From: an uncultured Verrucomicrobiales bacterium
GTDB lineage: Bacteria; Verrucomicrobiota; Verrucomicrobiia; Verrucomicrobiales; DEV007
NCBI GenBank assembly: GCA_938091905.1
Contig: CALKOM010000028.1
Coordinates: forward strand, 1-36,561
Direction of reading: 5' to 3'
DNA length: 36,561 nt
Part shown: positions 3-7,681 of the stretch, one piece after another
Numbering within the stretch: the stretch's first letter is position 1
How the letters are laid out: each line of letters starts with the position of its first letter
The notes under the pieces: generated by a model
What the model was told of the DNA's origin: nothing
The model's database searches: none
Seen by the model: the letters and a program-made list of their open reading frames with translations, nothing else
Made by a program: the position numbers and the translations under genes

Positions 3-358
3 TGGTGGAGGCGAGGGGAGTTGAACCCCTGTCCTAGTAGCTCCGAGGAGAAGGCATCTACACGCATAGTTGGATCTTTGATTTAAAGAGGGAGGCTTCA
101 ACCAACGAAATCCACACTCTCGATCACCCTGTTTCATTTCGCGCCCCGATCCGGATGCCCGATCGAGGAACTAGCCTGCTTTATGCGCCTCCCAGCCTAG
201 CAGGCGTGGGTCGGAAGACGTCGCTGGTTAAGCAGCGAGAGCTAATTCGTTTGAAGAATCTGCATTTATTTGTGTGATCCGATGATTAACGAGGCCAACG
301 AATCATCCTCGACGTGCCGCCCAATCTGTAAGCAACCAGTCGAAACCAAGACGCCCCC
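3..358 (-). ncRNA. ssrA: tmRNA (transfer-messenger RNA)
   Basis: The minus strand begins GGGGGCGTCTTGGTTTCGAC (358) and ends GGACAGGGGTTCAACTCCCCTCGCCTCCACCA (3). The 7-bp acceptor stem GGGGGCG/CGCCTCC has the G3:U pair. A T-arm and encoded CCA are present, length is 356 nt, and there is an internal tag ORF. Confidence 0.97.
228..263 (-). other. tmRNA proteolysis tag reading frame, (A)ADSSNELALAA*
   Basis: After AATAAAT the frame reads GCA GAT TCT TCA AAC GAA TTA GCT CTC GCT GCT TAA, giving the canonical ALAA C-terminus. Confidence 0.9.
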
Positions 359-3473: not shown

Positions 3474-5987
3474 TTAGGAGAAGAGGCTCATCTGGGGAGA
3501 TGGGCTCTCTGGCTTAGGATCGTCCTTAGTCTGGGCTCTGGTTGGGCGGGCGCGTTTCTTCTTGGCGACAGCGGCTTTGTCAGGCTGAGCGCCATTCTGG
3601 GATTCAAGATGATCGAGGATGGCTTGCGCCCGACTGACGACTTCCTTGGGAAGGCCTGCGAGTCGGGCGACTTGGATGCCGTAGCTACGGTCGGCGGCAC
3701 CGGGGATGATCTTGCGGAGAAAGATGATCTCTTCGTTCCACTCACGGACGGCCACATTGTAGTTCTGCACGCTAGGGCGGCTTTGAGCGAGGGCGGTGAT
3801 TTCGTGGTAGTGGGTGGCAAACAGGGTGCGTGCCTCGATGGTGTCGTTGACGTGTTCGGCGACACTCCAAGCAATGGAAAGGCCGTCAAAGGTGGACGTG
3901 CCGCGTCCGATTTCATCAAGCACGATGAGGCTTCGGTCGGTGGCGTTGTTGATGATGCTAGCCGTCTCGTTCATCTCGACCATGAAGGTGGATTGACCAC
4001 GGGCGAGATCGTCATTGGCACCCACCCGGGTGAAGATGCGGTCCACGAGACCGATCTCCGCTTGGGCCGCAGGAATGAAGCTACCTACTTGTGCCATTAG
4101 TGTAAGCAGGGCGACCTGACGGATGTAGGTCGACTTTCCCGCCATGTTTGGTCCGGTGATGAGGAGCAATCGGTTGATGTCGTGATCGAGCGTGGTGTCG
4201 TTGGGGACAAACTTCTCCTCGGCCAGGTTCTGATCGAGCATGGGATGCCGACCATCCTTGATGTAGAGGTTCTTGGACTCGTTGAGAAGAGGGCGGGTGT
4301 AATTGTAGAGTCGCGCTTTCTCGGCGAGTCCCGCCATGACATCGATCTCGGCTAGCGTGTCTGCTAGAATCTGCAGGGGGCGTAGATCTGTGAGGACGCG
4401 TTCGCGTAACTTTTGGAATTCCTCATACTCGTACGCGCGCATGCGTTCATCTGCGCCGAGGATCTTGTTCTCCATTTCCTTGAGTTCAGGCGTGATGAAT
4501 CGCTCGGCATTGGCGGTGGTCTGCTTGCGATGATAGTCGTCGGGGACTTGAGAGAGATTTGATTTCGTGATCTCGATGAAGTAACCAAAGACAGCGTTGT
4601 ATTTTACTTTGAGTGACTTGATGCCCGTGCGTTCGCTTTCGCGAACCTGTAAGTCAGCGATCCACTGTTTGCCTTCGCTAGAGGCTTTTCGAATTTCATC
4701 GAGTTCGGTGTTGTAGCCATCGCGGAAGATGCCGCCTTCCTTTACGGAAACGGGAGGCTCCTCGATGATGGCCTTTTCCAAAAGGTCGACGAGTTCTGGG
4801 AACTCGTGCAAGCGTTCCAACCAATCTTGGATGAGTGCAGGCGGGGTTCCTGGAACGAGCGATTCGAGATGCGCGCGCATGTCGGGGATGGCTTGGAGCG
4901 CTGCGGAGAGATTGCGCATATCGCGACCATTGCCCGATCCCTGACTGAGTCGTCCGAGGGTGCGCTCAACATCGCGGATGCCCTTGAGGGCTTCCTGGGT
5001 TTGTGAAAGAACAAAGGGTTGATTGAGAAAGGCCTCGAGGGCGTCTTGCCGGCTGCGCAGACGTTGCAAGTCGCGCAGAGGATGGAGAAGCCAGTCCCGG
5101 AGCTTTCGGCCACCCATGGGCGTGCACGTCTGATCAAGCGCATGCAACAGGGTGTGTTTGGTGCCGGCGCGGCACTCAACGAGATCGAGGTTTTGTTGGC
5201 TTGCCGTGTCGATGAGTACGCAGCTGTCCGTTTGATAGGGCTGCAATGTGAGCACGTGGTCGAGTTTGCGTCGCAAGACTTGCTGCAAGTAGTGAAGCAA
5301 GGCTCCTGCAGCGCTGATGGAGCCTTCGAGTCCGGCGCAGCCAAAGCCATCGAGGGAATGGACTTTGAATTGCTCTTTCAGCGAATGATAGGCTTGGTCG
5401 TAAAGGAAGGCGTAGCCATCGTAGGCAATGCCGCCAGGCAAGTCGGCTAAGCTTTCTTGTTCTTCGCTGTAGAGGAGTTCTGAGGGAGCAATGCGATGGA
5501 TTTCATCTTGCAGTGCAGCGCGGTCCTGAAATTCGGTTAGACGGAAATCCCCGGTGGTGAGATCGATGTAGGCCAGTCCGTAGGCTTTCTTGAATTGAAA
5601 GACACCTGCCAAGTAATTGGCGCGATTGGCGTCCAAGAGATTGAGATCGCTGATGGTGCCCGCGCTGATCACCTGGCCGATTTCTCGTTCGACAATCTTG
5701 CCCGCTTGCGGTTCGCTCACTTGTTCTCCGAGCGCGACTCGTTTCCCGGCTTTGACCAGTTTGCCAATGTAGCCCTCGGCAGCGTGGTGAGGTACGCCGC
5801 ACATGGGCGTGCCTTGACGTTTGGTTAGAGCAATGTTGAGAATACCTGCGGCTTCTTTGGCGTCGTCGAAGAAGAGCTCGTAGAAGTCGCCCAGTCGGAA
5901 GAAGAGGAGCACGTCTTTGGGGAGGCTCTGGCGCAGTCGCTGGTACTGCTGCATCATGGGGGTAAGTTTCCCGTCTTTCTTCGCCAT
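3474..5987 (-). CDS. mutS: DNA mismatch repair protein MutS
   Basis: TPMMQQY, GDFYELF mismatch-binding motif, Walker A GPNMAGKST, STFMVEM, DEIGRGTST, FATHYHE, SYGIQVA and a C-terminal clamp-binding-like QMSLF. Confidence 0.98.
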   Translation of the reverse strand: MAKKDGKLTPMMQQYQRLRQSLPKDVLLFFRLGDFYELFFDDAKEAAGILNIALTKRQGTPMCGVPHHAAEGYIGKLVKAGKRVALGEQVSEPQAGKIVEREIGQVISAGTISDLNLLDANRANYLAGVFQFKKAYGLAYIDLTTGDFRLTEFQDRAALQDEIHRIAPSELLYSEEQESLADLPGGIAYDGYAFLYDQAYHSLKEQFKVHSLDGFGCAGLEGSISAAGALLHYLQQVLRRKLDHVLTLQPYQTDSCVLIDTASQQNLDLVECRAGTKHTLLHALDQTCTPMGGRKLRDWLLHPLRDLQRLRSRQDALEAFLNQPFVLSQTQEALKGIRDVERTLGRLSQGSGNGRDMRNLSAALQAIPDMRAHLESLVPGTPPALIQDWLERLHEFPELVDLLEKAIIEEPPVSVKEGGIFRDGYNTELDEIRKASSEGKQWIADLQVRESERTGIKSLKVKYNAVFGYFIEITKSNLSQVPDDYHRKQTTANAERFITPELKEMENKILGADERMRAYEYEEFQKLRERVLTDLRPLQILADTLAEIDVMAGLAEKARLYNYTRPLLNESKNLYIKDGRHPMLDQNLAEEKFVPNDTTLDHDINRLLLITGPNMAGKSTYIRQVALLTLMAQVGSFIPAAQAEIGLVDRIFTRVGANDDLARGQSTFMVEMNETASIINNATDRSLIVLDEIGRGTSTFDGLSIAWSVAEHVNDTIEARTLFATHYHEITALAQSRPSVQNYNVAVREWNEEIIFLRKIIPGAADRSYGIQVARLAGLPKEVVSRAQAILDHLESQNGAQPDKAAVAKKKRARPTRAQTKDDPKPESPSPQMSLFS

Positions 5988-6080
5988 ACATGCAGCCTAG
6001 AGCACGCTTTGAAGCGTTGTAAAGACGTTGACCATAATGTGGCGGCATGTAAGCGTCCGCCTAACCGACAACCTATCCTT

Positions 6081-6305
6081 ATGAAGATTTCTATCGAATA
6101 CTGTTCCCAGTGAAACTACCAACCCAACGCTGCTAGTGTAGCAGCGGAACTCAAAGCGGCATTTGATGCGGATGCAACGCTCATTCCTGGTGGTGGTGGC
6201 ATTTTTGACGTGGTCGTGGATGGTGTGCGGATCTACTGCAAGCATGAGACGGAGAAGTTTCCTGATGGCGGGGAGATCGTGGTCCTCCTGAAGAATCGAG
6301 GGTAA
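6081..6305 (+). CDS. SelT/SelW/SelH (Rdx) family selenoprotein, CxxU motif, 74 aa (TGA 6111-6113 read as Sec)
   Basis: MKISIEYCSQ-U-NYQPNAASVAAELKAAFDADATLIPGGGGIFDVVVDGVRIYCKHETEKFPDGGEIVVLLKNRG*. It has the Rdx hallmarks IEYCxxU, GGxFxVxVDG and FP, no other lesion, and a downstream hairpin. Absent from the ORF track. Confidence 0.92.
6128..6146 (+). promoter_or_regulatory. Putative bacterial SECIS element
   Basis: Perfect 8-bp stem CGCTGCTA-GTG-TAGCAGCG with a G-containing apical loop and 22 nt between the UGA and the loop. Confidence 0.7.
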
Positions 6306-6346
6306 GAAGCTTGCTGGAACGGGCGTGCTTTGCGAGGGTGTTGGCA

Positions 6347-7681
6347 ATGAAACGCCTTATCTTGCTCCTCAGCGTCGTCGTTCCTCTCAGCCATCAGACT
6401 TCGTTGGCGGATGACTGGCCTCAGTGGTTTGGTCCGCAACGGGACGGGATTTGGCGGGAGACCGGGATTGTTGAAAAACTTCCCACCGGAGGCCCTGAGC
6501 TTGTTTGGAAAGCACCGATTGGAACTGGCTATGCTGGTCCTGCGGTCAGTGGCGGCCGTGCTTATGTTTTTGATAGGACTCTGGCGGATGTCACAGACTC
6601 GCCGGACAATCCGTTCGAGCGCGGTGAGATCCCCGGGAAGGAGAGCTTGCATTGCTTGGAGAGCGCGACTGGCAAGGTTGTTTGGTCGAAGAGTTATGAC
6701 ACGAACTACACGGTCAGTTATGCCGCGGGGCCACGGTGCACTCCTGTGATTCACGAAGGGCTCGTTTACACACTTGGTGCGGAAGGAAGACTTTTTGTTC
6801 GTCGCGTCGGAACCGGTGATGTTGTTTGGGAGAAAGACTTTGTCAGTGTGCTGAAAACCAAGACACCGACTTGGGGCTTTGCGGCGACGCCACTAATCGA
6901 GGATGATCTTCTCATCTGCTTAGCGGCAGGCGACGGTTCGACAGTGGTGGCTTATGACAAGAAGACAGGAGAAGAACGATGGCGCGCGCTTGGTGCCAAG
7001 GAGCCTGGTTACTGTCCACCGCGCCTGCTTGTGGAAGGTGACAAGCGGGTGCTTCTAATTTGGCATCCCGAGGCGATCAATGGACTGGACCCGAAGAGCG
7101 GCAAGGTTCTGTGGACGATTCCTTGGAAGATCAAGGCTGGGTTGACGGCACCGACGCCACGTCGCGAAGGAAAGCGGGTCTTCTTTACGAGTTTCTACAA
7201 TGGGGCAACGATGTTAGAGTTTGCCGAGTTTGACAAAGAACCCAAGGTGATGTGGCAGACGAAGCGGGCGAGCGAGAAACGAACCGAGCATTTAAATAGC
7301 ATCATGGGGACGCCTGTTTTTCATAAAGGCCATTTGTATGGTAACTGCAGCTATGGGCAATTCCGATGCTTGAAAGCGGAGACAGGCGAGCGGTTGTGGG
7401 AGTCGTTAGAGCCAGTCGTGAAGAAGGAAGTGCGTTGGGGGAACGTTTTCGTCACTCCTCATGAAGATCGCTACTTTCTTTTTAACGAGCAGGGAGAACT
7501 ACTCATTGGAAAGTTTTCTCCGCAGGGCTACGAAGAAATCAGTCGGGCAAAGTTGATCGAACCTGACGGAGCCGATATGCGCCAGCGGTCGATTGTGTGG
7601 TCGCACCCGGCCTATGCCAATCAGTGTATTTTCGTGCGCAATGATAGTGAGATCAAGTGCTTCTCGCTCAAGGCGCGCTAA
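6347..7681 (+). CDS. Secreted PQQ-binding-like beta-propeller repeat protein (BamB-like PVC family)
   Basis: Signal peptide MKRLILLLSVVVPL.., then DDWPQWFGPQRDG, repeated TG..VW/RW blade motifs and terminal WSHPAYAN..FVRND. ATG 6347 is preferred over TTG 6311. Confidence 0.9.
   Translation: MKRLILLLSVVVPLSHQTSLADDWPQWFGPQRDGIWRETGIVEKLPTGGPELVWKAPIGTGYAGPAVSGGRAYVFDRTLADVTDSPDNPFERGEIPGKESLHCLESATGKVVWSKSYDTNYTVSYAAGPRCTPVIHEGLVYTLGAEGRLFVRRVGTGDVVWEKDFVSVLKTKTPTWGFAATPLIEDDLLICLAAGDGSTVVAYDKKTGEERWRALGAKEPGYCPPRLLVEGDKRVLLIWHPEAINGLDPKSGKVLWTIPWKIKAGLTAPTPRREGKRVFFTSFYNGATMLEFAEFDKEPKVMWQTKRASEKRTEHLNSIMGTPVFHKGHLYGNCSYGQFRCLKAETGERLWESLEPVVKKEVRWGNVFVTPHEDRYFLFNEQGELLIGKFSPQGYEEISRAKLIEPDGADMRQRSIVWSHPAYANQCIFVRNDSEIKCFSLKAR

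Follow-up and report, generated by a model that had tools for sequence, protein, structure and literature searches.

A SelW-like selenoprotein gene with an in-frame UGA and a covarying hairpin in an uncultured Verrucomicrobiales bacterium, and its UxxU relatives

Positions 6081-6305 (+ strand) of a contig from an uncultured Verrucomicrobiales bacterium (36,561 nucleotides, the whole of which is referred to here as the window) almost certainly hold a functional gene that encodes a SelW-like protein of the Rdx family, 74 residues long, with a thioredoxin fold and the active site Cys8-x-x-Sec11, in which a UGA codon would be decoded as selenocysteine (Sec) by way of a hairpin in the message. The start codon ATG occupies 6081-6083 and opens a protein whose first residues read MKISIEYCSQ. 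The CxxU redox motif lies at 6102-6113 (+) and is spelled TGT TCC CAG TGA, with the Cys8 codon TGT at 6102-6104 and the TGA, codon 11 and the site of Sec11, at 6111-6113. Another 63 sense codons follow the TGA, making 74 codons in all before the TAA at 6303-6305. The original prediction, made from the letters of the window, had named the ATG at 6081, the TGA at 6111 and the 63 intact codons behind it, and each of these coordinates was re-derived exactly.

When read through the TGA, the 74-residue protein matches the Pfam model PF10262 (Rdx) over residues 2-71 with 65 bits (cut-off 22.6, E 7.5e-18) and the NCBIfam model TIGR02174 (CXXU_selWTH) with 48.7 bits (cut-off 34.2), so that the Rdx and SelWTH models are both passed. 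The top-scoring NCBIfam model is the equivalog NF041051 (SelTWH_Campy), of which 69 of 70 model positions align; as the score of 85.7 bits is under the curated threshold of 88, the gene is not filed under that name. Two of three tested relatives with a UxxU motif, which are taken up below, do pass the same model (105.7 and 92.3 bits), whereas the CxxU protein of the window falls below it. An AlphaFold2 model that took the alignment of 30 family orthologues as its input has a pLDDT of 90.9 and the thioredoxin-like order beta-alpha-beta-beta-beta-alpha, with the CxxU motif placed after strand 3-8 and before helix 14-28. Foldseek found 21 matches to this model in the PDB at E<=0.001, and the top of the list is taken by the bacterial SelW-related structures 2fa8, 3dex, 2obk, 2oka, 2ojl and 2p0g, with TM scores of 0.88-0.92 (0.88 for the first-ranked, 2fa8).

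Among 101 genomes of the family, a number that includes the window's own, a search gave 43 matches in 42 genomes, each with an in-frame TGA; all 43 loci were read, and the TGA is at codon 11 in every one. Of 600 candidate stretches in a collection of named species, 188 code for a relative, and the best 80 of these 188, which come from Planctomycetota, Desulfobacterota, Acidobacteriota, Gammaproteobacteria, Gemmatimonadota and others, are all of the CxxU type with TGA in place of a TGY codon. A search of 300 further genomes of the phylum gave 30 with a match, three with TGA and 27 stop-free. The eight stop-free loci that were fetched are distant homologues, all CxxC with TGC or TGT at the aligned codon, and they belong to a distinct subfamily with a CxxCRWLLR-type motif. 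It had been stated at the outset that proteins of this kind carry either CxxU or CxxC at exactly this position, and the Cys at the aligned position of the CxxC homologues displays just this pairing of Sec and Cys.

An alternative is that a Cys-type (CxxC) Rdx gene has here recently become a nonsense pseudogene, by mutation of a TGY codon to TGA, and that the hairpin is a coincidence. A TGA is one base from TGT or TGC, and the hairpin taken by itself is within chance, as set out below; against this, the codon position of the TGA is shared by all 43 family-level matches and by all of the best 80 cross-phylum relatives, the 63 codons past it are intact and conserved across orthologues, the hairpin covaries, and the same TGA is found in contigs of three other studies. 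Since the TGA is kept in the family and in the cross-phylum relatives, a fresh nonsense mutation is excluded, and we regard a pseudogene as vanishingly improbable. Nor is the TGA an assembly error, because contigs from three other studies have it too. The stretch 5700-6700 of the window was recovered from marine and seawater metagenomes of several studies, and in the three besides the likely source the covering contigs span 5700-6422 (no differences), 5983-6624 (one difference) and 5700-6336 (four differences), with 6081-6146 free of the listed differences in all three. A strain variant in the metagenome of one other study has four base changes in the 3' half of the gene, at window positions 6245, 6268 and 6283-6284, of which one falls on the third base of a codon, one replaces Gly63 with Asp and two jointly replace Val68 with Ala; its TGA and hairpin are the same as those of the window.

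A functional SelW-like selenoprotein gene calls for a host able to insert Sec, and the original prediction had inferred selA, selB, selC and selD for this genome (212 contigs, 95.3% complete). In a profile search, selA reached 489 bits (cut-off 268), selB 285 bits (cut-off 242, with model positions 2-579 of 581 aligned), selD 267 bits (cut-off 125) and tRNA-Sec 68.5 bits (cut-off 47), the last also being called by ARAGORN as tRNA-SeC with the anticodon tca. The Sec trait had further been described as patchy in Verrucomicrobiota, which is borne out at the level of the family: selA is matched strongly in 58 of the 101 genomes (in 56 above the cut-off, in two by fragments lying at the ends of contigs), and a selA match of any kind is found in 19 of the 30 genera. 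Strong selA matches occur in 40 of the 42 gene-bearing genomes and in 18 of the 59 without the gene, and the two gene-bearing genomes that lack one are 80% and 53% complete; as kin are not independent, we offer this co-occurrence as a pattern, with no statistical test attached.

The SelD of the window's genome is encoded by a 793-aa ORF without an internal stop (contig C162, L011:419-2797, - strand), and besides the AIRS and AIRS_C domains it carries a fused N-terminal pyridine nucleotide-disulfide oxidoreductase domain.

Another way to obtain a full-length product would be to read UGA as Trp or some other standard residue, either through a change of the code or through near-cognate read-through, in place of Sec. 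Reassignment of UGA to Trp is reported for Verrucomicrobiota (PMC13462651), and W is frequent at the site in public predicted proteins of the family. On the other side, the genome has the release factor 2 (RF2) gene prfB (474.6 bits, cut-off 370), and 736 of its 2637 ORFs of at least 300 codons terminate in TGA, which together remove the reading of UGA as Trp; TGA is otherwise an ordinary stop codon in this genome. Also against it, seven of the 30 aligned orthologues themselves terminate in TGA, the site aligns with Cys and not with Trp in the CxxC homologues, and the Sec machinery is complete. We therefore hold decoding as a standard residue to be very unlikely, and Sec to be almost certainly the residue inserted.

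The hairpin that we identify as the bacterial SECIS element lies within the coding region at 6128-6146 (+). Its arms, 6128-6135 and 6139-6146, form eight perfect pairs around the loop GTG at 6136-6138, so that the stem begins 14 nt and the loop 22 nt past the TGA; a perfect hairpin with a GTG loop at this distance had been claimed originally, and its coordinates hold. On its own, this hairpin is within chance expectation. The minimum free energy (MFE) of -12.5 kcal/mol corresponds to z = -0.69, with 43 of 200 shuffled sequences folding equally well, and the window contains two perfect hairpins of at least 8 bp where 30 dinucleotide shuffles lead one to expect 3.5 +/- 2.2. Neither folding energy nor hairpin count is significant, and both were dropped as support. 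The hairpin rises above chance by virtue of its placement behind the TGA and of its conservation, with covariation, among relatives.

Two alignments were used for the hairpin, a gap-free one of the family (30 sequences, 29 distinct) and one across phyla (81 sequences, 80 distinct). Over the eight-pair helix, 87% of the cells are paired among the 29 distinct family sequences and 89% among the 80 distinct cross-phylum sequences, and in both sets the stem covaries. In the family, the pairs 23-35, 25-33 and 26-32 are formed in every one of the 29 distinct sequences, their double changes numbering 9, 3 and 10, and the covariation score is 0.42 against 0.22 +/- 0.02 after shuffling (a value reached in none of 500 shuffles), with slid partners scoring at most 0.16. 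Across phyla, all five covariation measures lie above 500 of 500 shuffles, and the pair 23-35 is formed in 79 of 80 sequences by six pair types. Because this pair links the third positions of two Ala codons, where changes are synonymous, the protein cannot explain its covariation. The G of the loop is invariant and the T after it at least 90% conserved in both the 30-sequence and the 81-sequence alignment. The helix is not uniformly kept: the pairs 21-37 and 24-34 are disrupted in 9 and 7 of the 29 family sequences, and four of the eight pairs follow automatically from the codons of Ala-Ala ... Ala-Ala (GCN-GCN ... GCN-GCN). RNAalifold, run unaided on the family alignment, recovered only four of the eight pairs at a weak consensus energy of -2.02 kcal/mol, for which reason the analysis used the named structure and counts of its pairs.

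The bSECIS consensus as given in PMC13188914 has a loop of 3-9 nt on an upper stem of 4-16 bp, a G at the first or second loop position that is frequently followed by G or U, a spacing of 16-37 nt and an MFE of at most -7.5 kcal/mol. The window hairpin lies within it on all four counts, with a 3-nt loop on an 8-bp stem, the loop sequence GUG, a spacing of 22 nt and -12.5 kcal/mol. At gathering level, an Rfam scan of the whole window had as its sole match a tmRNA gene (RF00023, 168.8 bits) at 3-358 (- strand) and left the hairpin unmatched; with permissive settings, 6000-6350 yielded a single snoRNA-like match at chance level (E 0.51) and no curated family over the hairpin. The original prediction had also said what would speak against it, namely a complete genome lacking the Sec machinery together with close orthologues having TGC or TGT and no conserved hairpin, and none of this was found.

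From these elements we infer the following course of events. The mRNA hairpin at 6128-6146, acting as a bacterial SECIS element, would be bound by SelB-GTP carrying Sec-tRNA(Sec), and SelB would thereby bring selenocysteine to the UGA at 6111-6113, so that termination by RF2 is avoided. The product would most likely be a small thiol/selenol oxidoreductase cycling via a Cys8-Sec11 selenenylsulfide, in keeping with the redox role presumed for SelW-like selenoproteins.

The gene lies between mutS (3474-5987, - strand; Pfam MutS domains I-V), from which it diverges, and a PQQ_2/BamB-like beta-propeller gene (6347-7681, + strand; Pfam PF13360, E 2.8e-29), whose ATG at 6347 comes 41 nt past the TAA; the divergent mutS and the 41-nt spacer are as first described. 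The best MutS relatives are all labelled Verrucomicrobiota (59-70% identity), consistent with the earlier placement of the DNA in that phylum. In the mutS-selW intergenic region there is a weak promoter-like site at 6009-6038 (+; TTGAAG, 18 nt, CATAAT) with 9 of 12 consensus matches, which is not evidence of function, and no terminator-like site was found between the selenoprotein and propeller genes. Adjacency to mutS is seen in all five other genomes of the genus and at none of 24 loci from other genera, and the propeller is a neighbour at none of the 29 other loci. As the mutS adjacency is confined to the genus and the propeller neighbour to the window, we treat the selenoprotein gene as a stand-alone unit, and an operon link to the PQQ-like propeller is rejected, none of the 29 other loci having that neighbour. 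In a marine metatranscriptome library, one contig (6237-6562) runs from the 3' end of the selenoprotein gene across the 41-nt spacer into the beginning of the propeller gene; given possible carry-over of DNA, this hints at co-transcription no more than weakly. X15, the one metatranscriptome contig set with a fair share, was rejected as evidence of expression for the 5' part of the gene, as it covers 6237-6700 and not the TGA or the hairpin, and DNA carry-over is possible.

This arrangement bears on the suggestion that translation simply halts at the UGA, yielding a 10-residue peptide or nothing, and that the hairpin instead serves mRNA stability or the attenuation of the propeller gene. The proximity of that gene, 41 nt downstream with no terminator between, would suit such a role, as would the RNA-library contig bridging 6237-6562, and yet the sequence past the TGA is in frame and encodes an Rdx domain that is conserved and foldable, no U tail follows the hairpin, and the propeller is missing from 29 of 29 other loci at which the TGA and hairpin are nevertheless kept. 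A halt at the UGA is thus highly improbable, and decoding of the codon as Sec is the reading we adopt.

Ordinary ORF calling does not see the gene, and this is where it matters for annotation. The mechanical ORF list of the window has no + strand ORF of at least 50 aa between 5997 and 6311, in agreement with the original remark that ORF calling had missed the gene, and in public protein sets the predicted members of the family are cut short or have Trp at the site; our description of the gene as unannotated here rests on that list and on this treatment of the family in those sets. A word-indexed protein collection provided two word-sharing candidates, neither at E<=1e-10, and an exhaustive search of 1.84 billion protein representatives provided 442 matches at E<=0.001, 20 of them at E<=1e-10. 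Eighteen public sequences were read. Nine are full-length with W at the Sec site, seven are truncated sequences that start past the TGA (in two of the seven, an initial M is followed by W at the Sec site), and two are true Cys forms (P0007 and P0013); the entries with Trp or truncation are to be found among P0002-P0011, P0043 and P0063. In P0002 there is a W at both motif positions, which identifies it as a UxxU gene read as WxxW. The W of the databases is most simply explained by a gene caller using a table in which TGA is Trp, and the SelW-like family is systematically mis-called in metagenome protein sets.

The UxxU form just mentioned is found in 19 of the 43 family-level orthologues, spread over five genera of the same family (loci L041-L043, L046-L051 and L243-L252), in which TGA stands at codon 8 as well as at codon 11. 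At these loci the first seven codons show in-frame conservation, and the two UGAs are followed by a single hairpin, at distances of 31 and 22 nt, which both fall inside the SECIS range of 16-37 nt. The form is absent from the best 80 cross-phylum relatives. A literature search found no published SelW-like UxxU form, which is not proof of absence, and where the SelW-like family is catalogued in PMC9312934 and PMC13188914 it appears solely as PF10262, CxxU, with one Sec. We lean towards a history in which the window gene belongs within a verrucomicrobial SelW-like clade, five sister genera of which changed the partner Cys to a second Sec to give a diselenide form, with two UGAs 9 nt apart and one SECIS. 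Such relatives offer a natural system in which to ask how a single SECIS serves two close UGA codons.

The original prediction went on to suggest that other selenoproteins in this genome may be mis-annotated, and indeed at least 12 further redox genes interrupted by TGA were found (L223-L233 and L241, on contigs C5, C35, C46, C171, C111, C117, C125, C159, C178 and C200) in a genome scan that was neither exhaustive nor unbiased, 20 of 85 motif-bearing candidates having been chosen by eye and the first-start rule of the scan having missed the SelW-like gene itself. Three of the 12 are over curated selenoprotein cut-offs: NF041383 (VPGUxxT, 373.9 against 275), NF041106 (ArsC-family, 112.9 against 85) and NF041199 (Trx7/PDZ, 370.4 against 300). 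The other nine have a Pfam redox domain across the TGA, with U as the first Cys of CxxC, the domains being HMA (two), AhpC-TSA (three), DUF3179, Thioredoxin_8, the DsbD C-terminus and Thioredoxin. A number of the families concerned already appear in lists of known selenoproteins. Six of the 20 chosen candidates (L235, L237-L240 and L242) had no Pfam match at E<=0.001; L237, L239, L240 and L242 are probably noise, and L238 is uncertain. With these interrupted genes, the redox and periplasmic thiol-disulfide metabolism of this organism would be badly under-annotated without selenoprotein-aware gene calling.

The same scan turned up a pair of paralogous ORFs, 626 and 545 aa long when read through, that are strongly conserved on both sides of an in-frame TGA directly after a Cys codon, which would give a Cys-Sec dipeptide. 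One of them, L234 (G000:C114:49036-50913, - strand), has a sub-threshold N-terminal match to Metal_resist (24.3 against 29.2 bits) far from the TGA, and the other, L235 (G000:C77:5942-7576, + strand), has no Pfam match; neither has an NCBIfam match, no family reaching its curated cut-off. They may represent an undescribed selenoprotein family, or else two pairs of adjacent genes.

The wider Rdx family sets the window gene in context. Mouse SelW (2npb) and MIEN1 (2ljk) share the Rdx fold with the window model (Foldseek ranks 23 and 22, TM 0.66 and 0.74), and mammalian SelW has a CxxU motif as the window gene does, whereas the identity of these two proteins to the window protein is just 17-22% and eukaryotic SelW has its SECIS in the 3'-UTR, an architecture unlike the bacterial one (PMC1088965). 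The Cys-type SelW-related structures, 2fa8 from Agrobacterium, 3dex from Streptomyces, 2obk and 2oka from Pseudomonas and 2p0g from Vibrio, are closer, having the fold in common with the window model at an rmsd of 1.2-1.7 A and 28-36% identity, and the redox motif at the same position. The difference is in the motif, CxxC in these proteins and CxxU in the window protein, and with CxxC they need neither a SECIS nor the Sec machinery.

Closest of all are the bacterial SelW-like selenoproteins, reported in PMC2398784 to be the most abundant marine bacterial selenoprotein family, with 427 Sec and 56 Cys forms in the GOS data. We found no mention of Verrucomicrobiota in the main text of the selenoprotein reviews PMC9312934 and PMC13188914. 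The finding is correct but ordinary, the SelW-like CxxU family being long known, and the gene alone matters little as one more member of the commonest marine bacterial selenoprotein family. Like the window gene, members of this family encode some 70-80 residues with CxxU near the N-terminus, have the SECIS just past the UGA inside the coding region, and come from a marine setting, and the best 80 cross-phylum relatives share with it the motif, the TGA and the hairpin. We see no substantial difference between the window gene and this family; its host belongs to the Verrucomicrobiota, and its neighbourhood of mutS and the propeller is specific to the genus or to the genome.
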